This document shows positions 1 to 11,071 of a DNA stretch of 11,071 bases, in pieces. This DNA is from a virus (taxonomy: Duplodnaviria > Heunggongvirae > Uroviricota > Caudoviricetes). The number at the start of each line of letters is the position of its first letter. The stretch's first letter is position 1. The notes beneath the pieces were generated by a model. The model worked only from the letters and a program-made list of their open reading frames with translations, was not told the origin of the DNA and searched no databases. The position numbers were made by a program, and so were the translations under genes. The stretch is taken from the IMG/VR virus record IMGVR_UViG_2778261676_000005; one strand, 5' to 3'.

Positions 1-1053
1 TTACGGGGTAATGCCAACCGCTGCCGCCACTTTGTCGCCACTTGGCAGCGTTGCCAGAGGATTGAAACGGAGCGCCGTTTCCAGATGATCCGGTGCCAGA
101 TGAGCGTAACGCATAGTCATTTTTATATCGTGATGTCCGAGGATTTTTTGCAAAGCAAGGATATTTCCACCCGACATCATGAAATGCGCCGCAAACGTAT
201 GGCGCAGAACGTGTGTCAGTTGACCGCGAGGGAGCACGATTGACGTTTTTTCCATCACGGATAAAAATTGAAAATAGCAGTCTGTGAAGAAATTGAACCC
301 ATCAAGCGCCATGATCTCTTCATAAAGCTCTTTACTGATAGGGATGCTTCTGTTTTTCTTCCCCTTCGTTCTTACAAAGGTAATTCGGTATTTAGTCACC
401 TGTGATCGGGTAAGGTTTATTGCTTCTCGCCAGCGTGCGCCTGTGCTTAAGCATATCTTGACTACCAGTGCCAGAATTGGGTCCTGACGTTTGCAATCAG
501 CCAGCAGTTCAACAATCTGCTCATGGGTAAGCCATGCCATCTCTTTTTCTGCGATGGTGAATTTTCGCATGTTCTCCAGTGGGTTTGGATACGACCATTC
601 GCCCAGGCGGGATAGTTCGCTAAAAACACTACTTAGATAGCTTTGCTCCAGGTTAATGGTGACCGGGCTTGCTCCTTTCTTCCATTTCTCGCTGAAGTAG
701 ATCTCACCTGTCAGGCGTTTATCTCGATAGTGGGCAAACATTTTAGAGGTGAGATCGGTTGCAAGGGGATTGCCCAGAGCGTCAACCATCAACAGCAATT
801 TATCATAGACATGCTGCCCAGCGGTTAGAGATTTACCATGTAGTTTGAACCATAGCTCAACCACGTCTTTCAGTGTTCGACGATCCACTGATTCTCCCAG
901 CCAGGGCTTTGCTTCGGTTTCTTCCATCGTATGGCGCTCAAAAGCCAGAGCTTCGCCTTTGGTGGCGAATTGTTTACGCACACGACGCCCACTACGTCCG
1001 GCGGGGTAACATTCGCAAAGCCATTTTCCTGTGGTGAGTTTTCGTACTGCCAT
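1..1053 (-). CDS. int: Tyrosine recombinase / phage integrase, P2-186 family
   Basis: The 376-aa ORF resembles P2 integrase along its length, including the C-terminal catalytic region (..HVLRHTFAAHFMMSGGNILALQKILGH..MTMRYAHL). Start placed at ATG 1053 (MAVRKLTTGKW) because GGAGGG lies 7 nt upstream; the ORF-track start at 1131 is probably an upstream extension. Stop is at 1-3. Confidence 0.9.
   Translation of the reverse strand: MAVRKLTTGKWLCECYPAGRSGRRVRKQFATKGEALAFERHTMEETEAKPWLGESVDRRTLKDVVELWFKLHGKSLTAGQHVYDKLLLMVDALGNPLATDLTSKMFAHYRDKRLTGEIYFSEKWKKGASPVTINLEQSYLSSVFSELSRLGEWSYPNPLENMRKFTIAEKEMAWLTHEQIVELLADCKRQDPILALVVKICLSTGARWREAINLTRSQVTKYRITFVRTKGKKNRSIPISKELYEEIMALDGFNFFTDCYFQFLSVMEKTSIVLPRGQLTHVLRHTFAAHFMMSGGNILALQKILGHHDIKMTMRYAHLAPDHLETALRFNPLATLPSGDKVAAAVGITP
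19..40. repeat. Left copy of 22-bp direct repeat cgctgccgccaYtttgtcgcca; candidate attL core
   Basis: Matches 8217-8238 at 21 of 22 positions (c versus t at position 12). It lies in the last codons of int; the other copy abuts the ogr stop, where P2-type attP is expected. Confidence 0.6.
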
Positions 1054-1239
1054 AAAAAATGCCCTCCAATAGAGAGCATTTTTACTGTATGTATAACCAG
1101 TGTCAATGTATGAAATCCTGCGACCATACATCTCACTGAAGCCATAATGAAGTTGGCTATTTTTTGCTATGTGAGTATGTGACTTTTGCGGTTAGCCTGC
1201 GGCTCATTGTTATATTAGGCGTAGATATAAAAGCAAAAT

Positions 1240-1431
1240 TTATCGCGAGTTTTTAGTACAGATTTTTTTTGATTTACTAATAGTTCCATCATTGCAAACG
1301 AACTTTCCATCGGAGGTACAGTGAGAGACACCTCCCTTTTTCCCAGAACAAGGGTAATTTTTAGCATAGGTAGTTAGTGGGTTTAATAACAAAGAGCATG
1401 ATAAAACCACAAAAAATACCTTACCAAGCAT
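1240..1431 (-). CDS. Small secreted cysteine- and lysine-rich protein (63 aa), function unknown
   Basis: Hydrophobic N-terminus with a likely signal-peptidase site after ..TYA; mature part ~40 aa with 4 Cys. Strong SD (GGGAGGAAA) directly after the cI stop, so probably co-translated with cI. Region is visibly AT-rich. Confidence 0.55.
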
Positions 1432-1446
1432 AGTTTCCTCCCGGTA

Positions 1447-2016
1447 TTACCTAACGTACTTAATTGTTAAACTTATAATTTTCCCAATTATTTCAACATC
1501 TTCTATCTTGCACTCGAAGGCTCTGTTTCCACCTTCAACGAAGATTCTTCCACCGGGTAAACGAGTAATGTCGCGGATTGTTATTTCGCCATCAATACTT
1601 ATTACCCATTTACCGTCACGTATATCATCAAATTCTTTATCACAAATAAATTCAGAATTGTTATCTGTGATGACAAAAGGTTTTTTAAACGTAGAGGGTA
1701 GAAATCCCTTATCAAAAATATAAAAACCGTCTTCACGCAAGGCACCATCAGATAATACATATTTAGCAACTTCCATAGTATTTGTATTACCTGAAGTTTG
1801 CTTTGAACCATGTCCGGTTGTGAGCCAATTAAGCGAGGTGCCCGTTTCAAGGGCGCACTGGATTACCCATTCTGCTGGGAATGAGTCACGCATGTAGCGT
1901 GTGGCGAGTGTACTTTTAGAGATTCCTAAATGATCGCACAACGCCTGTCGAGTTTTGAATCCATAAGCTTCTACCATGCGCTCTATAGCGCCTCGTCCGC
2001 CTTTCTCCAAATTCAT
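1447..2016 (-). CDS. cI: CI-type prophage repressor (phage 186 CI family: N-terminal HTH plus C-terminal domain)
   Basis: N-terminus AIERMVEAYGFKTRQALCDHLGISKSTLATRYMRDSFP is typical of the 186 CI HTH domain; ~190 aa as in 186 CI. Divergent from the early operon. ATG 2016 preferred (GGAG 5 nt upstream) over the GTG at 2022 used by the track. Confidence 0.8.
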   Translation of the reverse strand: MNLEKGGRGAIERMVEAYGFKTRQALCDHLGISKSTLATRYMRDSFPAEWVIQCALETGTSLNWLTTGHGSKQTSGNTNTMEVAKYVLSDGALREDGFYIFDKGFLPSTFKKPFVITDNNSEFICDKEFDDIRDGKWVISIDGEITIRDITRLPGGRIFVEGGNRAFECKIEDVEIIGKIISLTIKYVR

Positions 2017-2040
2017 GGTCACTCCAAGTGAACTTTTATC

Positions 2041-2069
2041 TTGACGATTTCACTGTGCGATCGTATGTT
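2041..2069 (+). promoter_or_regulatory. Candidate sigma70 early lytic promoter (pR-like): TTGACG-N17-TATGTT
   Basis: -35 TTGACG at 2041-2046, 17-nt spacer, -10 TATGTT at 2064-2069, pointing at apl/cII. Flanked by inverted hexamers GTGAAC (2030-2035) and GTTCAC (2086-2091) and by two GATC sites. Confidence 0.4.
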
Positions 2070-2141
2070 TATGGTGTTCACAAAATACAAACGATCCGTA
2101 TTCGTCCTGATTAATCATCATTAAACGAGGAATGTTGCATC

Positions 2142-2363
2142 ATGAGACCTAACATTTCAATCACTCTTACCACGCCTCATGTGACTATTGAACGCTATAG
2201 CGAGCTGACAGGGCTGTCCATCGATACCATCAATGACATGTTGGCTGACGGACGCCTTATCCGTCACCGTCTGCGCAAAGATAAAAAACGTGAAAAAGTG
2301 ATGATCAACATAGCAGCCATGACCGTTGATGCGCTTTCAGAATGCAATCTAAACCTTAATTAG
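2142..2363 (+). CDS. apl: Apl/Cox-like small DNA-binding protein (excision control / repressor of lysogenic promoter), assigned by position
   Basis: First gene of the rightward operon opposite cI, 73 aa, basic C-terminus, GAGGAA upstream. Assignment rests on position in the 186-type switch and size, not on recognised sequence motifs. Confidence 0.5.
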
Positions 2364-2395
2364 TTCGATTCTGAAATACATCAGAGGCATTGACC

Positions 2396-2905
2396 ATGTT
2401 TGATTACCAAGTTTCCAAACATCCACATTTTGATGAAGCCTGTCGTGCATTCGCATTGCGCCACAACCTAGTGCAACTGGCAGAACGTGCAGGCATGAAT
2501 GTGCAGATTCTGCGGAACAAGCTGAACCCAGCTCAACCTCATTTATTAACCGCACCAGAAATCTGGTTGCTTACCGATCTGACTGAAGATTCAACGCTGG
2601 TAGATGGCTTTCTGGCACAGATTCACTGCCTGCCATGTGTACCGATTAATGAGGTGGCAAAAGAGAAACTGCCGCATTACGTCATGAGTGCAACTGCAGA
2701 GATAGGGCGTGTCGCGGCAGGTGCGGTTTCTGGCGATGTAAAAACCAGTGCAGGCCGTCGTGATGCGATCAGCAGCATTAACTCTGTTACACGACTGATG
2801 GCGCTGGCTGCTGTTTCATTGCAGGCCCGTTTACAGGCTAATCCTGCGATGGCGAGTGCAGTTGATACCGTGACTGGCCTCGGTGCTTCATTCGGTTTGC
2901 TGTGA
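2396..2905 (+). CDS. cII: CII-like lysogeny establishment regulator (phage 186 CII family)
   Basis: Resembles 186 CII from the second Met ([20 protein letters not shown]..), and is 169 aa from that Met, the same length as 186 CII. AGAGG lies 8 nt upstream of ATG 2396. Confidence 0.8.
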
Positions 2906-2912
2906 GGTGCTT

Positions 2913-3113
2913 ATGCTGACGAAAGAACCATCATTTGCATCGCTGCTGGTAAAACAAAGTCCGGCAATGCACTACGGTCACGGCTGGATCATGGGTGAGG
3001 ATGGTAAACGCTGGCATCCGTGCCGTTCACAAGATGAATTGCTGGCAGAACTATCTACGAAAAAACGGGGGAACAAATGGCTATTGAAGGCGCTGCGGCG
3101 ACTGTTCCATTAA
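2913..3113 (+). CDS. Small early protein, unknown function (positional equivalent of 186 fil)
   Basis: ATG 2913 preceded by GTGAGGTG; 66 aa; follows cII in the same operon. No motif recognised. Confidence 0.45.
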   Translation: MLTKEPSFASLLVKQSPAMHYGHGWIMGEDGKRWHPCRSQDELLAELSTKKRGNKWLLKALRRLFH

Positions 3114-3418
3114 GACCCGGTGAACGCCTGAATGGACTTAATCATATTGCGGAGTTAAGGGCGAAAGTTTTTGGTTTGAATATTGAGTCAGAGCTTGAGC
3201 GGTTTATTAAAGATATGCGTGATCCTCGGGATATCAATAATGAACAAAATAAACGGGCACTGGCTGCCATATTCTTTATGGCAAAAATTCCAGCTGAACG
3301 TCATAGCATCAGCATTAATGAGCTGACCACTGACGAAAAGCGGGAGTTGATTAAAGCAATGAATCATTTTCGTGCAGTGGTGAGCTTATTTCCCAGACGG
3401 CTAACCATGCCGAATTAA
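3077..3418 (+). CDS. Early protein, unknown function (113 aa)
   Basis: ATG 3077 preceded by GGGGGAA; overlaps the upstream ORF by 37 nt in another frame. No motif recognised. Confidence 0.45.
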   Translation: MAIEGAAATVPLRPGERLNGLNHIAELRAKVFGLNIESELERFIKDMRDPRDINNEQNKRALAAIFFMAKIPAERHSISINELTTDEKRELIKAMNHFRAVVSLFPRRLTMPN

Positions 3419-3485
3419 CCAACTAATGAAATTAATGGCGTAAACCCGCCGGGCATCCCTTTATCTAAATTCAGGAGAATTGCTT

Positions 3486-3719
3486 ATGCGTAATATTGAA
3501 ACCCTCACGACCAAAACCGGACCGGATGATGCAGGTCTTAATCTTTTACTGACAGAAGCTCGTCTGGAAGAACGCCGGGCAAGGGCTGAAGCAATGGCTG
3601 CTCGCCTCGATAGCCTGGCGTGTCATATCACCTCCCGCCAGCTAAACCACGTCGAAGCGGCAGAACTGCTGCGTGTGACTGCTGAAGCAATCCAGAACGA
3701 AGCGCAGGAGATCCACTGA
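3486..3719 (+). CDS. Small early protein, unknown function (77 aa)
   Basis: ATG 3486 with AGGAG 8 nt upstream (the track start at 3480 is a TTG). Its stop overlaps the next start (TGATG). Confidence 0.5.
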   Translation: MRNIETLTTKTGPDDAGLNLLLTEARLEERRARAEAMAARLDSLACHITSRQLNHVEAAELLRVTAEAIQNEAQEIH

Positions 3720-3946
3720 TGGCTGATGCAATGGATCTCGTACAGCAGCGCGTTGAAGAAGAACGCCAACGCCATATCCGTGCTGCCCGTGCCAAAACGC
3801 CGGGCGTGTCCCGCGTGCTTTGCGTTGAGTGTGAAGCGCCAATTCCGCCAGCACGCCGCCGTGCCATTCCGGGTGTGCAGCTTTGCATTACCTGTCAGGA
3901 AATCGCAGAGCTGAAAGGCAAACATTACAACGGAGGTGCTGTATGA
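3719..3946 (+). CDS. TraR/DksA-family C4 zinc-finger protein (P2 orf82-like)
   Basis: CVECEAPIPPARRRAIPGVQLCITCQ is a CxxC...CxxC finger with the basic spacer typical of phage TraR-like proteins. Stop overlaps the dam start (ATGA). Confidence 0.75.
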   Translation: MADAMDLVQQRVEEERQRHIRAARAKTPGVSRVLCVECEAPIPPARRRAIPGVQLCITCQEIAELKGKHYNGGAV

Positions 3947-4800
3947 GCACCATCCTGAAATGGGCAGGAAATAAAACCGCCATAATGTCCGAACTGAAAA
4001 AGCATCTTCCTGCTGGCCCGCGACTGGTTGAACCTTTCGCGGGTTCCTGTGCAGTGATGATGGAGACGGATTATCCCAGCTATCTTGTTGCGGATATTAA
4101 TCCTGATTTAATCAACCTCTATAAAAAGGTTGCTGCTGATTGTGAGGCGTTTATATCTCGTGCCAGAGCTTTATTTGAGGAAGCAAACAGGGAGGTGGCT
4201 TATTACAACATAAGGCAGGAGTTTAATTACTCCACTGAAATTACTGATTTCATGAAAGCGGTATATTTCCTGTATCTCAATCGTCACGGTTACCGTGGTT
4301 TATGTCGCTATAACAAGAGCGGGAATTTCAACATTCCCTACGGTAATTATAAAAATCCGTATTTCCCTGAAAAAGAAATTCGCGCATTTGCAGAAAAAGC
4401 CCAGCGAGCAACGTTTATCTGCGCCAGCTTTGATGAAACGCTGGCGATGTTGAAGGCGGGGGATGTGGTGTATTGCGATCCGCCGTATGACGGTACGTTT
4501 TCCGGCTATCACACTGATGGTTTCACTGAAGATGACCAGTATCACCTGGCATCCGTTCTTGAACATCGGTCATCAGAAGGACATCCGGTCATTGTTTCTA
4601 ACAGTGACACATCCCTGATCCGTTCGTTGTATCGCAATTTCACCCACCACTACATCAAAGCAAAACGCAGCATCGGTGTGGCAGCTGGCGAGGGTAAATC
4701 AGCAACAGAAATCATTGCTGTTTCCGGGCCGCGCTGCTGGGTGGGATTTGATTATTCGCGTGGCGTGGACAGTTCTGCCGTGTACGGAGTACGTGCATGA
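3943..4800 (+). CDS. dam: DNA adenine methyltransferase, Dam-like (N6-adenine class)
   Basis: N-terminus [11 protein letters not shown] and motif FAGSCAV, plus the catalytic DPPY motif ([11 protein letters not shown]). ATG 3943 follows GGAGG; the longer track ORF from 3883 is an upstream extension. Confidence 0.85.
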
Positions 4801-6359
4801 GTCATGCCGATATGAACAACTGCTGCGGCTTTAACGAGTCTGCCGCAGCATTCTCATGGAACAGCCCGAAAAAGGCCATTAACCCTTATCTGGACCCGGC
4901 GGAAGTTGCGCCGGTTTCTGCGCTTTCAAACCTGATCACTCTGTACGCTGCCGATAACGAGCAGGAACAACTGCGCCGCGAGGCACTGAGTGATCAGGTC
5001 TGGGAGCGTTATTTCTTTAATGAATCCCGTGATCCTGTCCAGCGCGAAATGGAGCAGGATAAGCTAATTAGCCGGGCAAAGCTGGCGCATGAGCAGCAGC
5101 GTTTTAATCCGGACATGGTCATTCTGGCGGATGTCAACGCCCAGCCTTCCCATATCAGCAAGCCGCTGATGCAACGTATTGAATACTTCAGCAGCCTGGG
5201 CAGGCCAAAGGCTTATTCCCGCTATTTACGTGAGACGATTAAGCCATGTCTGGAACGACTGGAGCATGTACGCGACAGTCAGCTATCTGCATCTTTTCGC
5301 TTTATGGCAAGCCATGAAGGGCTGGACGGCCTGCTGATCTTGCCTGAAATGAGTCAGGATCAGGTGAAACGCCTGTCCACCCTGGTAGCTGCGCATATGA
5401 GTATGTGCCTTGATGCAGCTTGTGGTGATTTGTATGCCACCGATGACGTTAAGCCAGAAGAAATCCGCAAGACATGGGAAAGGGTGGCAGCAGAAACCCT
5501 GCGACTGGATGTCATCCCACCTGCGTTTGAGCAACTCCGCCGGAAAAGAAACCGCCGTAAACCCGTGCCCTATGAACTCATTCCGGGTTCGCTGGCGCGT
5601 ATGTTGTGCGCCGACTGGTGGTATCGGAAATTATGGAAGATGCGTTGCGAATGGCGGGAAGAGCAGTTGCGCGCTGTCTGCCTGGTCAGCAAAAAAGCAT
5701 CTCCCTATGTCAGCTATGAAGCTGTGATGCATAAACGTGAGCAGCGCCGTAAGTCGCTGGAGTTTTTTCGTTCTCATGAACTGGTGAACGAAGATGGCGA
5801 CACGCTGGATATGGAAGACGTGGTAAACGCCAGCAGCAGCAACCCTGCGCATCGCCGCAATGAGATGATGGCCTGTGTTAAAGGTCTGGAGCTTATCGCG
5901 GAAATGCGCGGTGACTGCGCCGTTTTCTACACCATCACCTGTCCGTCACGTTTCCATTCCACGCTAAATAACGGCAGGCCCAACCCGACTTGGACAAATG
6001 CGACGGTAAGACAAAGCAGTGATTATCTGGTCGGCATGTTTGCTGCATTTCGTAAGGCGATGTACAAAGCCGGATTGCGCTGGTATGGCGTGCGGGTGGC
6101 TGAGCCGCATCATGACGGTACAGTTCACTGGCACCTGTTGTGTTTTATGCGCAAAAAAGATCGCCGCGCCATTACTGCTTTGTTGCGTAAGTTTGCCATT
6201 CGTGAAGACCGTGAGGAGCTGGGTAATAACACAGGACCACGCTTTAAGTCTGAGCTGATACCGGGGAAGTGCAGGCCGTGGAGCTTGTGGTGCGTGGACG
6301 TCACAAAGAAGTGGATTCCGGCGAGTGGAAGACGGGCGAAAGCAACACCACCAAAGTGA
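4797..6359 (+). pseudogene. A: Replication initiation protein gpA (rolling-circle HUH endonuclease), 3'-truncated
   Basis: Resembles P2 gpA through the HUH motif ([16 protein letters not shown]). The ORF then ends after a short tail that is the out-of-frame reading of the tail-tube-like fragment. At 520 aa it is short of the ~760 aa I recall for P2 gpA. Confidence 0.7.
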
Positions 6360-6490
6360 CCAGTACCAACAGCTACGCGAAGCTGACCATCAATGGTGAG
6401 GTGCTCTATGAACTGGACCTTATCAACATGGTGGAAATTGTGGACGGTGTGGACCTGATGGAAGCGCACCGCAACGCCCTCGGCCTCTGA
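6263..6490 (+). pseudogene. C-terminal fragment of a tail tube (gpFII-like) gene lacking its 5' part
   Basis: Frame-2 translation ..[69 protein letters not shown] resembles tail-tube C-termini and sits directly upstream of E, where FII lies in P2. No plausible start or N-terminal region. Confidence 0.45.
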
Positions 6491-6544
6491 TGTATCTGAA
6501 CGGCGCGGGATACCGCGCCAGAACCCAATTTACAGGACAACAAA

Positions 6545-6847
6545 ATGAGCGATAAGCAGACTGAAAAGACCATTCAACTGGATACCCCCATCATGCGCGG
6601 TAAAACAGAAATTACCGAAATTGTGTTGCGTAAACCGCAGTCTGGTGCGCTGCGCGGCACACGCCTGCAGGCCATTATGGATATGGATGTGAACGCGATG
6701 ATGACCGTGATCCCCCGCATCTCCAGTCCGGCACTGACTGCACAGGAAATCGCAGAGATGGACCCGGCAGATCTCACCGCTATGTCGGTTGAGGTTGTCA
6801 CTTTTTTGTTGAAGAAGTCGGTGCTTGCCGGTTTACCGACAGCCTGA
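6545..6847 (+). CDS. E: Tail assembly chaperone gpE
   Basis: 100-aa protein with gpE-like sequence (TIQLDTPIMRGKTEITEIVLRKPQSGALRG); slippery heptamer TTTTTTG near the 3' end; immediately upstream of the tape-measure start. Confidence 0.75.
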   Translation: MSDKQTEKTIQLDTPIMRGKTEITEIVLRKPQSGALRGTRLQAIMDMDVNAMMTVIPRISSPALTAQEIAEMDPADLTAMSVEVVTFLLKKSVLAGLPTA

Positions 6848-6981
6848 CGGTTGACGATCTGGTGGCAGATATCGCCACCATTTTTCACTGGCCGCCATCC
6901 GTTACTGACGTTATGCCGCTGACCGAAGTGCTGGAATGGCGGTATAAAGCGATTCAGAGATGCGGGGCCAACGATGAGTGA
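6545..6981 (+). CDS. gpE+E' frameshift fusion (programmed -1 frameshift, P2 E/E' and lambda G/GT type)
   Basis: From T TTT TTG at 6802-6808 the -1 frame is open to TGA at 6979-6981, reading ..GACRFTDSLTVDDLVADIATIFHWPPSVTDVMPLTEVLEWRYKAIQRCGANDE. It ends overlapping the T start at 6974, as in P2. Confidence 0.6.
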
Positions 6982-7549
6982 TAACAACCTGCGCCTGCAG
7001 GTCATTCTTAATGCGGTTGACAAACTCACCCGCCCATTCCGTGCTGCACAGGCCAGTTCGAAAGAGCTGGCTGGCGCAATCAGAAACTCCCGTGACGCAT
7101 TAAAGCAACTCAATCAGGCGGGTAACAGCCTGGAAAAATTTCGCAAGCTGCAGGCTGATAACAAGAAGTTAGGCGACAGGCTGAACTATGCCAGACAGAA
7201 GGCTAATTTGCTTAGCTCTGAGCTGGAGGCGATGGAGCAACCATCACAAAGGCATTTTGTGGCTTTAGGTCGGCAAACGCTGGCAGTCCAACGCCTGGAA
7301 GAACAACAAAAATATTTGCAGAAGCAAACGGCGCTTGTGCGTGCTGAACTGTACCGGGCGGGAATTTCTGCGAAAGATGATGCGGGAGCAACTGCCCGTT
7401 TAGCCCGTGAAACATCACGTTATAACCAGGAACTTTCGAAACAGGAGGCGCGGCTGAAGCGACTGGGGGAAGCTCAGCGCAGGATGAATGCAGCGCGTGC
7501 CAGTTACCCGCGAACCCGCGAAGAAAGAAAGCACTACGGTGAAGCGTAA
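6974..7549 (+). pseudogene. T: Tail tape measure protein gpT, N-terminal fragment (~170 aa of an expected ~800)
   Basis: N-terminus MSDNNLRLQVILNAVDKLTRPF with coiled-coil sequence is typical of P2-family tape measure proteins. The ORF ends after 191 aa and overlaps the gpD-fragment frame. Confidence 0.7.
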
Positions 7550-7907
7550 GCGCAGGACTAAGAAGCAGAAGAAAGAGCCGGAAGCGAAGCAGGGCGATTA
7601 CCTGGTGGGGACGGATGAAAACGTGCTGGTACTTAATCGCACTTATGCCAACCGGAGCAACGCCGAACGAGCGGCAAAAATGCAGTGGGAACGCCTGCAA
7701 CGCGGCGTTGCGTCATTCTCGCTACAACTGGCGGAAGGGCGGGCAGATCTCTACACGGAAATGCCAGTGAAAGTCAGTGGCTTTAAACAGCCGATAGATG
7801 ATGCGGAATGGACCATTACGACTCTGACACATACTGTCAGCCCGGATAACGGTTTTACAACCAGTATTGAACTCGAAGTGAAGATTGATGATTTCGAAAT
7901 GGAATGA
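7488..7907 (+). pseudogene. D: Tail protein gpD, C-terminal fragment
   Basis: ..YANRSNAERAAKMQWERLQRGVASFSLQLAEGRADLYTEMPVKVSGFKQPIDDAEWTITTLTHTVSPDNGFTTSIELEVK matches the C-terminal ~120 aa of P2 gpD. No N-terminal two thirds and no gpU gene. Sits directly upstream of ogr as in P2. Confidence 0.8.
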
Positions 7908-7997
7908 TTCTTCGCAATGGAGAACTTTTAAGTTTGCAAAATGGAATAATAAGGTATCATTATTGTGAATTTAGCAAAAATGGGGAGAACTCGAAAA

Positions 7998-8216
7998 ATG
8001 ATGATTTGCCCACTGTGTGGAAGTGCCGCCCATACTCGCAGCAGTTTTCAGGTATCTTCATTGACCAAAGAGCGTTACAACCAGTGCCAGAACATTAACT
8101 GCAGCCATACTTTTGTTACCCATGAAACTTTTGTTCGTTCGATTGCAACGCCAAAAGAGTCAAATCCGGTTCAGCCGCATCCAATGAAATCAGGACAGGT
8201 GGCGCTCTCTCTTTGA
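7998..8216 (+). CDS. ogr: Late gene transcription activator Ogr (zinc finger)
   Basis: MMICPLCGSAAHTRSS...ERYNQCQNINCSHTF...PHPMKSGQ resembles P2 Ogr (Cys4 finger); 72 aa from ATG 7998, as in P2. GGGGAGAA upstream. Confidence 0.9.
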   Translation: MMICPLCGSAAHTRSSFQVSSLTKERYNQCQNINCSHTFVTHETFVRSIATPKESNPVQPHPMKSGQVALSL

Positions 8217-8238
8217 CGCTGCCGCCATTTTGTCGCCA
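8217..8238. repeat. Right copy of the 22-bp direct repeat; candidate attR core
   Basis: cgctgccgccattttgtcgcca starts on the nucleotide after the ogr stop and matches 19-40 with one mismatch. Confidence 0.6.
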
Positions 8239-8296
8239 TCGTTAAAAAGCAGTGCTTCTAACATCATGATTTTAAAAGGCATAAATTTCAGACAAC

Positions 8297-8339
8297 AAAA
8301 AACCCATCAACCTTGAACCGAAATGGCGGGGTTGATGGG
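8297..8339 (-). terminator. Candidate intrinsic terminator for ybjL (read on the minus strand)
   Basis: Perfect 10-bp arms CCCATCAACC (8303-8312) and GGTTGATGGG (8330-8339), with an inner CCG/CGG pair, followed on the minus strand by a U-run (plus-strand A-run 8297-8302). About 110 nt downstream of the ybjL stop, and the loop is large, so confidence is modest. Confidence 0.35.
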
Positions 8340-8451
8340 CTCCACAAAATGGGGACATCAAAGAAAAGCAGTGGCACTAATTAAGACTGATGCCCTGCGG
8401 AAAAGTTCTGCGGTTGTGCAAAAAAATTTCATTTTCAGGGCAACTTCAGTT

Positions 8452-10137
8452 TTATCCTAATCCTGGCCATACCATGACGATGATTGTCCCTGCCAGCGTC
8501 AGCAGGACGTTGGCGATTGCATAGGTGCCCGCATAGCCCAGCGCCGGGATGTTACTGCGAGCTGTATCACTGATGATCTCCATTGCCGGCGCGCAGGTAC
8601 GTGCGCCCATCATTGCGCCGAACAACAGCGCGCGGTTCATTCGCAATACATAAGCACCGAACAAGAAACAGATAACCACGGGCACCAGACTGACAATCAA
8701 TCCGGCAATCAACATCTGACCGCCAATCGCGCCCAGGCCGTTATTAATACCGCTACCGGCGCTCAGACCAACGCCTGCCATAAACACCATCAAGCCGAAC
8801 TCTTTCACCATGCTTAATGCACCCTGCGGAATGTAACCGAAGGTCGGGTGGTTAGCACGCATAAAGCCCAGCATAATTCCGGCGAATAACAACCCGGCAG
8901 CGTTCCCCATGCCGAAACTGAATGTGCTGAACTGGAAGGTGATCATCCCGATCATCAGCCCAATAACAAAGAAGGCGCAGAATGCCAGCAGGTCAGTGAC
9001 CTGGCTGTGAATCGAGATAAAGCCGATGCGATCGGCGATGGTTTTTACGCGGCGGGCATCGCCGCTGACTTGTAAAACGTCACCTTTGTTAAGCACGACG
9101 TTGTCATCTATCGGCATCTCAATCTGGCTACGAATGACGCGGTTAAGGAAGCAACCGTGATCGGTCAACTTCAGTTGTGCGAGACGTTTACCTACAGCGT
9201 TATGGTTTTTAACGACCACTTCTTCAGTGACGATACGCATGTCGAGAAGGTCACGATCGAAAACTTCTTTACCGTTACGGAAGCTGGGATCGAGTCGGGC
9301 ATGGGCGTCGGGATAGCCTACCAACGCTATTTCATCGCCCATTTGTAGCACGGCATCACCGTCTGGATTTGCCAGAATCCCGTTACGTCGAATACGTTCA
9401 ATGTAGCAGCCGGTTTGTCGATAAATACCCAGTTCACGCAGATTTTTGCCGTCGGTCCAGGCCACCAGTTCCGGGCCGACGCGATAGGCGCGGATCACCG
9501 GTAAATAAACCTTACGGTTGGCATCAGTGTCCAGGCCACGTTCGCGGGCGATTTGCTGGGCGCTGGTCTGTAAGTCCTGATGCTGCAATTTCGGCAAGTA
9601 ACGCGCACCAACAATCAAACTCACCAGACCGATTAAATAGGTTAAGGCATACCCGAGGCTCAGATTATCCAGTGCCAGTGAGAGCTGCCTGCTTTCCATG
9701 CCGGAATGACGCAGTGTATCGCCAGCACCGACCAGAACCGGTGTCGACGTCATAGAGCCTGCTAACATACCGGCCGTCAGGCCAATATCCCAGCCAAACA
9801 GCTTACCTAACCCTAAGGCGATCACCAGCGCACTGCCAACCATCACCAGTGCTAACATTAGGTAATTTTTCCCATCGCGAAAAAAAATGGAAAAAAAGTT
9901 CGGTCCGGCTTCGACCCCGACGCAGAAAATAAACAGCATAAAGCCAAGATTAAGCGCATCGGTGTTAATGCTGAAATGTTGTTGGCCTAATAACAGCGAT
10001 ACGACTAAAACGCCAATGGAATTACCCAGTTGGATCGAACCAAGTCGTAACTTTCCGAGACATAGCCCAAGCGCGAGGACCACAAATAATAACAGAATGT
10101 AATTCCCATTTAACAATTCGGCGACGTTTATATTCAC
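8452..10137 (-). CDS. ybjL: Putative transport protein YbjL (AAE family)
   Basis: 561-aa polytopic membrane protein; N-terminus [33 protein letters not shown] and length match E. coli YbjL as I recall it. Confidence 0.9.
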
Positions 10138-10406: not shown

Positions 10407-10784
10407 GTGAAACATAAACAACGTTGGGCGGGGGCAATCTGCTGTTTTGTCCTCTTCATTGTGGTGTGCCTTTTTCTGGCGACGCACATGAAAGGCGCTT
10501 TTCGGGCTGCCGGGCATCCTGAAATCGGCTTGCTATTTTTCATTCTTCCTGGAGCAGTCGCCAGCTTCTTTTCACAGCGTAGAGAAGTCCTGAAACCTCT
10601 GTTTGGCGCAATGCTGGCGGCACCCTGTTCGATGCTCATTATGCGGCTGTTTTTTTCACCGACGCGCTCATTCTGGCAAGAGCTGGCATGGTTACTAAGC
10701 GCGGTGTTCTGGTGTGCGCTGGGGGCACTGTGTTTCTTATTTATCAGTAGTTTGTTTAAACCACAGCACAGAAAAAATCAGTAA
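10407..10784 (+). CDS. ybjM: Inner membrane protein YbjM
   Basis: 125-aa hydrophobic protein divergent from ybjL and convergent with grxA, as in the E. coli K-12 ybjL-ybjM-grxA locus. Confidence 0.8.
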   Translation: MKHKQRWAGAICCFVLFIVVCLFLATHMKGAFRAAGHPEIGLLFFILPGAVASFFSQRREVLKPLFGAMLAAPCSMLIMRLFFSPTRSFWQELAWLLSAVFWCALGALCFLFISSLFKPQHRKNQ

Positions 10785-10813: not shown

Positions 10814-11071
10814 TCAGGCGTCCAGATTTTCTTTCACCCATGCAGCAAAATCGGTATAGCCGCCGATATGTTGCTGATCGACAAAAATCTGCGGCACGGT
10901 TTCTACGGGTTTACCTGCCTTTTGTTGTAGATCTTCTTTAGTGATCCCTTCCGCACGAATATCTACATACTGATACTGAAAATCATCGCGTTCATTGCTC
11001 AATTTCTCAGCCAGATCTTTTGCACGCACACAGTAAGGGCAACCCGAACGACCAAAAATAACGGTTTGCAT
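10814..11071 (-). CDS. grxA: Glutaredoxin 1
   Basis: 85 aa with CPYC active site (MQTVIFGRSGCPYCVRAKDLAEKL...); matches E. coli GrxA as I recall it. Start codon is at the window edge (11069-11071). Confidence 0.9.
   Translation of the reverse strand: MQTVIFGRSGCPYCVRAKDLAEKLSNERDDFQYQYVDIRAEGITKEDLQQKAGKPVETVPQIFVDQQHIGGYTDFAAWVKENLDA

Follow-up and report, generated by a model that had tools for sequence, protein, structure and literature searches.

We consider it very probable that the DNA stretch analysed here, an 11,071-nt Caudoviricetes record of IMG/VR (IMGVR_UViG_2778261676_000005; hereafter the window, whose positions serve as coordinates), carries a cryptic, internally deleted prophage of the phage 186 branch that sits in the 3' end of the small RNA (sRNA) gene rybB, between rcdA and ybjL. 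In this reading, the ends of the prophage are formed by a 27-bp core, and two copies of a 22-bp repeat that give the impression of terminal repeats lie inside the element as predicted arm-type sites of its integrase (Int). The junction positions, the arrangement of the phage attachment site attP, the identity of the repeat units to an arm-site consensus, the conservation of the Int N-terminus and the overlap with rybB were all computed, and from them we infer binding by Int and IHF.

Two copies of the 22-mer CGCTGCCGCCAYTTTGTCGCCA stand on the plus strand, one at 19–40 (Y = C) and one at 8217–8238 (Y = T), and no further copy was found in the window at up to 3 mismatches. Two matches arose in 0 of 200 dinucleotide-preserving shuffles. 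The first copy falls within the last codons of the minus-strand int gene, whose reverse translation ends in LPSGDKVAAAVGITP and the stop, and the second begins at the base right after the stop codon of ogr. A sequence-only reading of this DNA had located both copies exactly, had recognized a compact P2/186-family remnant beside ybjL and had placed attP between ogr and int for this family. These claims hold, given the open reading frames (ORFs), the Pfam matches, the collinearity with phage 4LV2017 and the phage-form attP records. It had also taken the repeats for the attL and attR core, overlapping the 3' end of int, and of this proposal one part stands: the repeats do belong to the attachment region. 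The junctions themselves lie at the 27-bp core, with the 22-mers inside the element, and the true core overlaps the 3' end of rybB, outside int.

The comparison of empty-site Escherichia coli genomes with lysogens placed the host/phage junctions at the 27-bp core ATAARTTTYAGRYAACAAAAAACCCAT. In the window, the attR core ATAAATTTCAGACAACAAAAAACCCAT spans 8281–8307 (plus strand) and constitutes the true right end of the prophage, an assignment on which the attB/attL/attR/attP comparison, the junctions in several genera, the empty-site match and the att annotation of 4LV2017 agree. The attL core would lie 75–101 nt upstream of window position 1, judging from the nearest relatives. In genomes without the island, homology on the ybjL side begins at about window position 8281, not at 8217 or 8239. 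The empty site of EC958 runs from the rcdA stop through tag, ATAAATTTCAGGCAACAAAAAACCCAT and caaccttgaacc, joining rcdA to the ybjL side, while the rcdA side of lysogen L9 reads gggtagtag, ATAAGTTTTAGATAACAAAAAACCCAT and ttatgtaaacggg, with the int stop codon (equivalent to window position 1) 75 nt after the end of the core. A four-way alignment of attB, attL, attR and attP gave the same common 27-bp core, with a sharp switch directly after CCCAT. In addition, the attL and attR entered by the depositors of the 4LV2017 record are exactly the core sequence, outside the 22-mers.

That the 22-mers are themselves the attL and attR core copies, within which Int exchanges strands and one of which should be left at the empty site, would suit their direct orientation, their position at the int and ogr extremities expected for P2-type attachment sites and a recurrence far beyond chance. 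The empty sites contradict it. The 22-mer is absent from the EC958 empty-site locus (L001) at up to 3 mismatches, and the junction that this arrangement predicts (window positions 1–18, one 22-mer and 8239–8450) was spanned by 0 of 5426 complete E. coli genomes; the good matches to that query all start at base 19 and all fall in the approximately 1112 prophage-carrying genomes. In contrast, an empty site reconstructed from the rcdA 3' end, the core and the right flank (304 nt) was matched at a minimum coverage of 80% in 4227 of the 5426 genomes, and the twelve matches listed were all 100% identical over their full length. Neither 22-mer marks a switch from host to element DNA: the core is about 100 bp off the int-side copy, and element DNA continues for 42 bp past the ogr-side copy. 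The same holds across five genera, in which the differing host flanks of Klebsiella, Silvania, Enterobacter, Serratia and another Escherichia species all converge on CAGGCAACAAAAAACCC and then pass into phage DNA, so that the host boundary stands at the rybB core, about 100 bp from the int-side 22-mer. Moreover, both 22-mers coexist in phage-form attP, and the repeat is not specific to this site, as it recurs at many loci in many genera, with its 19-mer also found in prophages of Vibrio, Serratia, Photorhabdus and others. An att core located in the 22-mers therefore has virtually no chance of being correct.

The core also carries information on where strands are exchanged. Its left part reads ATAAGTTTTAGAT in several empty-site genomes (100% matches), and in L9 this version is kept at attL, with the phage-type TAAATTTCAGGC at attR. 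Such polymorphisms suggest that strand exchange falls within the invariant AACAAAAAACCCAT, at window positions 8294–8307. This segment is the complement of the RybB 3' end, AUGGGUUUUUUGUU, that is, half of the terminator stem together with the U-tract. The rybB gene itself occupies 8294–8372 on the minus strand (Rfam RF00110, full model length, 105.3 bits versus a gathering score of 40, E value 2e-21) and separates the prophage from ybjL. Its 3' end makes up the last 14 bp of the core (8281–8307), and the core brought by the phage regenerates this end at attR. On the attL side, the phage would supply a hairpin of its own (ACCCATTTA-TG-TAAACGGGT), followed on the minus strand by a T-run, and this putative structure would terminate int transcription. 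A terminator scan of 7900–8500 returned nothing; the loop of the rybB terminator probably exceeds the 8-nt limit of the scanner.

The rybB site has been described before. Hotspot #29 of the E. coli pan-genome is a 'Felsduovirus within rybB' (PMC10121019), the island Kpn38RybB has been described in Klebsiella (PMC4048246), and a prophage lies between ybjL and rcdA in strain NC101 (PMC12803456). P2-family integration into rybB, like all the components considered here, is thus already known. An ogr-type right end was found beside ybjL in about 1105 of the 5426 complete E. coli genomes, and the site is therefore occupied by a prophage or remnant in about 20% of them, including E. coli B. The element in the window is a common and documented occupant of a documented hotspot.

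If the 22-mers are not the core, their structure and position point to arm-type sites for Int. Each copy contains two tandem 11-bp units with the patterns TGCCGCCAYTT and TGTCGCCAYnn. The predicted P' arm sites extend over 19–43 (plus strand; TGCCGCCACTT at 22–32 and TGTCGCCACTT at 33–43) in the last int codons, and the predicted P arm sites over 8217–8241 (plus strand; TGCCGCCATTT at 8220–8230 and TGTCGCCATCG at 8231–8241) just after ogr. Phage-form attP (KP12; IMG/VR contigs L131 and L132) runs from the ogr stop through a 22-mer, 42 nt, the core and about 100 nt to the 22-mer in int. The two 22-mers thus flank the core, 183 bp apart from start to start, as is the case for arm sites, and in relatives the P' pair is located about 100 bp inward of the attL core. 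The consensus proposed for 186-type arm sites is tgccGCCActt (PMC3448106); the first unit here is identical to it, and at least two direct units are present. In the GenBank record of phage 186, Int arm-type sequences, YAYCGCCAYTY, are annotated as 'predicted', three of them left of attP and two right of it, and the sequence has tandem 11-bp pairs at 20897–20918 and 21126–21147 and an inverted unit at 20879–20889. The broader pattern YRYCGCCAYTY occurs 4 times in the window versus 0.26 expected. Its match at 6934–6944 (minus strand), isolated among the tail genes and without a partner, was taken as chance. A weak candidate for a third unit, the CGCCAC-containing GAGCGCCACCT at 8197–8207, is inverted (minus strand). 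It precedes the P pair by 12 bp, within the ogr 3' end, and mirrors the inverted third site of phage 186 to the left of the core.

Between the P arm pair and the core there is an IHF-like site, AATCATGATGTTA, at 8259–8271 (minus strand), proposed from its consensus match (one mismatch to WATCAANNNNTTR). A comparable IHF consensus stands at the same relative place in the diverged P arms of relatives, as judged by eye in the alignment, and the phage 186 record gives IHF footprints on both arms. On the P' arm of relatives, the stretch from the core to the int stop, which falls just beyond the window edge, contains AAAACAAYAAGTT(A/G) in two direct copies (L004 2945–2985; L007 4583–4620). Each is one mismatch from the IHF consensus, and they could be IHF or Apl sites; 'atcaataagtta' within the P' arm copies is conserved even in Serratia relatives.

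The integrase is consistent with this type of arm recognition. The window Int is 56% identical to phage 186 Int over 334 aa, and the N-terminal arm-binding region is conserved, with MAVRKLTTGKWLCECYP in the window versus MTVRKNPAGGWICELYP in 186 and a close alignment of residues 1–39. Three N-terminal positions have been proposed to separate arm recognition, occupied by W/E/Y in 186-type and Y/D/R in P2-type integrases (PMC3448106). The window Int has W11, E14 and Y16 at these positions, which places its N-terminal domain in the 186 type. In strain 730V1 (L005 3001–3761), about 712 bp, with an annotated hypothetical gene of 756 nt, are inserted directly after the P' pair, between the equivalents of window positions 49 and 50. 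The insertion replaces the C-terminal tail of int, and the arm sites and the last 49 nt are kept.

The repeat is also found well beyond this site. A scan for the exact 19-mer TGCCGCCAHTTTGTCGCCA in one genome per species (596 Gb) gave at least 120 loci, in Escherichia, Klebsiella, Serratia, Pantoea, Photorhabdus, Vibrio, Photobacterium, Shewanella and other gammaproteobacterial genera. Among the 122 matches listed, 37 stand where an int homologue has its 3' end, with the relative orientation preserved (median identity 55%), 12 are just downstream of an ogr homologue, and 7 are near an int homologue in another arrangement. Conservation across elements of Vibrio and Serratia is not expected of a host-derived att core, but it is expected of an arm site that a conserved N-terminal domain recognizes. 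In L032, L117, L127 and L132, the spacers separating the 22-mer from the core have diverged, while the 22-mer and the core persist. Another prophage at the same core, in strain EcPF15, was found through its ybjL flank and not through the motif, and it has a tandem pair of its own, TGTGTCGCCACTT-CGCCGCCAC, about 65 nt from the core. This EcPF15 element (L133 25543–43800) is a degraded 186-type prophage in which ogr stands beside the portal gene instead of at the right end, and unknown genes adjoin the P arm.

Several points weigh against the assignment of the 22-mers to Int and of the ends to the core. The attL core of this particular genome is outside the window, and its placement comes from relatives only. 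Binding of the 22-mers by Int is a prediction from sequence, and even the arm sites of phage 186 are labelled 'predicted'. The last two positions of the second P unit, TGTCGCCATCG, do not fit the consensus. The P' pair is in coding sequence, so that part of its conservation may be accounted for by the protein; the P copy, equally conserved, is non-coding. For 66 of the 122 matches listed, no int or ogr homologue was detected nearby, 22 of these being near a locus edge, and by a rough calculation about a dozen chance matches are expected in 596 Gb. Finally, because the loci were chosen by an exact 19-mer match, motif conservation within this set is circular. The points free of this circularity are the association of the motif with 186-type int and with ogr, the conservation of the core and the divergence of the flanks.

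The 22-mers could instead bind another protein (the Apl/Cox excisionase, the CI repressor or Ogr, for instance) or be a non-functional relic of an old duplication of the attachment region. Phage 186 does have CI and Apl sites in or near its att and B regions, which would favour such a role, as does the predicted status of Int binding in the window. However, the Apl sites (21075–21121) and CI sites (20548–20596) of 186 are annotated apart from the YAYCGCCAYTY units, and the 22-mer is unchanged among elements that differ in cI and apl; relative to 4LV2017, the region 1112–2127 is unalignable and 2128–3079 is 88% identical. The motif furthermore accompanies int homologues down to about 45% identity, and a neutral remnant would not remain identical beside diverging spacers. 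We therefore regard binding by another protein, or a relic, as having a small chance of being correct.

The repeats might also serve as substrates for RecA-dependent or slipped deletion, an excision route independent of Int. In favour of such a route, they are identical at 21 of 22 positions, directly oriented and 8.2 kb apart. Nevertheless, the junction that it would leave, with one 22-mer between the int tail and the P arm plus rybB, was found in 0 of the 5426 complete genomes. A length of 22 bp is also very short for a homologous recombination substrate, and this possibility is extremely improbable.

Two further roles can be proposed from position and similarity. Int bound at the 3' ends of int and ogr could feed back on read-through or termination, the arm sites then acting as regulators, or a look-alike of the repeat in rcdA could serve as a host pseudo-arm site in the attL complex; we see no more than a faint chance for this pair of ideas. 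The look-alike resembles the P-arm 22-mer together with the TGA that precedes it, and it lies in the coding sequence at the 3' end of rcdA (TGACGCTG, a gap of four positions and CATTTTGTCACC; L001 2417–2437, equivalent to L004 2817–2837). In a post hoc comparison, its local alignment scored 24, where shuffles averaged 14.2 and 2 of 2000 attained that score. It lacks the CGCCA core of the units and lies 84 bp from the core, versus 64 bp for the P arm. It may be due to chance or be an old relic.

With the 22-mers as Int arm sites, a course of integration can be outlined by analogy with the lambda, P2 and 186 integrases. The N-terminal domains of the heterobivalent Int would bind four or five 11-bp arm units, IHF would bend the arms, and arm-bound Int would bridge to the core sites, giving an intasome able to recombine attP with the 3' end of rybB. 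At the core itself, Int would act through its catalytic and core-binding domains, with the exchange presumably within AACAAAAAACCCAT. After integration, the P arm would stay with attR and the P' arm with attL, and it is because of this partition that the 22-mers would look like terminal repeats. Excision would additionally need an Apl/Cox-like protein.

In a P2/186-type prophage, direct repeats found at the int and ogr extremities need not be the att core, as arm sites can mimic terminal repeats. Boundary callers that use the outermost direct repeat would misplace the ends of such elements by 40–100 bp and miss the rybB target. The corrected boundaries are 8307 for the right end and about 75–101 nt before the window for the left end.

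Phage 186 (Eganvirus ev186, NC_001317) has one of the closest known counterparts of this attachment region. In both, tandem direct 11-bp units flank the core on the left and the right, with an extra inverted unit on the left arm, IHF-type sites lie between arms and core, attP is located between ogr (the B gene in 186) and int, and the phage inserts into a small RNA gene at its 3' end, which the phage core regenerates. They differ in the target, which is the rybB sRNA here and tRNA-Ile (ileY) in 186, and in the core sequence. The units read TGYCGCCAYTT here versus YAYCGCCAYTY in 186, and the arm pairs are 183 bp apart instead of 229 bp. Unlike 186, which has orf69 between attP and int, the window element has its P' pair inside the int coding sequence. 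The same core is shared with the rybB-integrating P2-family prophages (4LV2017, KP12, Kpn38RybB, hotspot #29 and the defective P2-like prophage of E. coli B). With 4LV2017 and KP12, the int gene has 95–97% nucleotide identity, and the flanking rcdA, rybB and ybjL are common to all; the window copy differs in having lost about 23 kb to two internal deletions, and it is not viable. The attP of P2 follows the same logic (PMC3448106): it lies between ogr and int, its Int is heterobivalent, and there are two or more direct repeats on each arm. Its arm class (P2-type tgTGGaCa; PMC3448106) and the three N-terminal Int residues (Y/D/R in the P2 type) are different, and the immunity region of the window is of 186 type, with CI, Apl and CII.

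The interval itself is a cut-down P2/186-family prophage of about 8.4 kb adjoining ybjL, as indicated by its ORFs, the Pfam matches and the comparison with relatives. It belongs to the family (Peduoviridae) by its gene order, int-cI/apl-cII-fil, followed by A, tail genes, D and ogr, and by the domains Int_N, Phage_CI_repr, Phage_CI_C, Phage_CP76, Phage_GPA, Phage_TAC_7 and Ogr_Delta. By blastn, the window is collinear with the full-length Klebsiella phage 4LV2017 (33.5 kb) at 88–97% identity, save for 1112–2127 (the int–cI gap and cI), which had no alignment, with 2128–3079 at the lower bound of just 88%. As a full-length reference, vB_EcoM-813R9 (ON470620.1, L009) was dropped in favour of 4LV2017, being a deleted prophage with host flanks. 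Although deposited as a phage, ON470620.1 is a chromosomal segment and not a packaged genome: host genes flank its prophage, which is cut short at gene H, with a fusion to ybjT.

On the minus strand, int (1–1053, stop codon at 1–3) encodes an apparently intact 350-aa tyrosine integrase of 186 type (Pfam Int_N and Phage_integrase). It is followed by a 63-aa ORF without a Pfam match (1240–1431), annotated as a hypothetical protein in strain L9 and located in the variable int–cI gap, and by a 186-type cI immunity repressor gene (1447–2016; Pfam Phage_CI_repr and Phage_CI_C, and CI in the annotation of relatives). The int–cI gap (1054–1446) looks like a variable cargo slot. The 63-aa ORF is its sole content here, and in relatives it holds either a gene for a 'chromosome segregation ATPase' (1677 nt; KP12, 813R9) or one for a TPR protein (1587 nt; EcPF15).

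The plus-strand genes begin with an apl/cox-like gene of 73 aa (2142–2363; no Pfam match), a candidate excisionase and switch protein. Its product has weak similarity to 186 Apl (8 of 20 residues, E value 1e-4), and the Apl assignment was made because of its position, that of the gene annotated Cox in vB_EcoM-813R9. The early genes that follow, assigned from ORFs, Pfam and the annotation of relatives, are cII (2396–2905), fil (about 2913–3113), a DUF5347 gene (3077–3418), a DUF2732 gene (about 3486–3719), a TraR/DksA zinc finger gene (3719–3946) and a Dam methylase gene (3943–4800). The replication gene A (4797–6259; Pfam Phage_GPA) is truncated, with the 5' 1.46 kb left of about 2.4 kb, and is collinear with 4LV2017 up to position 8300 of that phage.

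At 6257–6259, blastn revealed a first deletion junction, where 4LV2017 position 8300 is joined to 27667 and the alignment pieces overlap by 3 nt. The loss amounts to about 19.4 kb and comprises the 3' part of A, all head, lysis, baseplate, fibre and sheath genes and most of the tube gene. The truncated A runs through this junction out of frame into the FII fragment, which creates a 520-aa chimeric ORF (4797–6359). Tail-gene fragments occupy 6260–7506 on the plus strand, namely the 3' end of FII, the E chaperone gene (6545–6847) and the 5' part of the tape-measure gene T (6974–7506), identified by ORFs, blastn against 4LV2017 and Pfam Phage_TAC_7. A second junction at 7505–7506 joins 4LV2017 position 28916 to 32638, with a 2-nt overlap of the alignment pieces and a loss of about 3.7 kb, covering most of T, all of U and the 5' part of D. 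A 3' fragment of gene D (7507–7907, plus strand; ORF, the annotation of relatives and the 4LV2017 comparison) then precedes the intact late-gene activator ogr (7998–8216, plus strand; a zinc finger protein, Pfam Ogr_Delta, ogr/Delta in the annotation of relatives). Beyond rybB lie the host genes ybjL (8452–10137, minus), ybjM (10407–10784, plus) and grxA (10814–11071, minus).

Altogether, about 23 kb is missing because of the two internal deletions, which leave A, FII, T and D truncated. The virion, lysis and replication modules of a viable prophage are not complete and, with the replication and virion genes truncated or gone, the element is therefore a non-viable remnant. The same pair of deletion junctions was found in none of the 5426 complete E. 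coli genomes or of the scanned loci, the best place covering 89% of the window. Since int, cI, the apl-like gene, ogr, the P arm and attR look intact, the element could at most excise and then be lost. In E. coli B (L003 1354–3402) and 4LV2017 (L010 10905–12888), the region deleted in the window carries a retron, with an St85-family effector and a reverse transcriptase, beside the portal gene.

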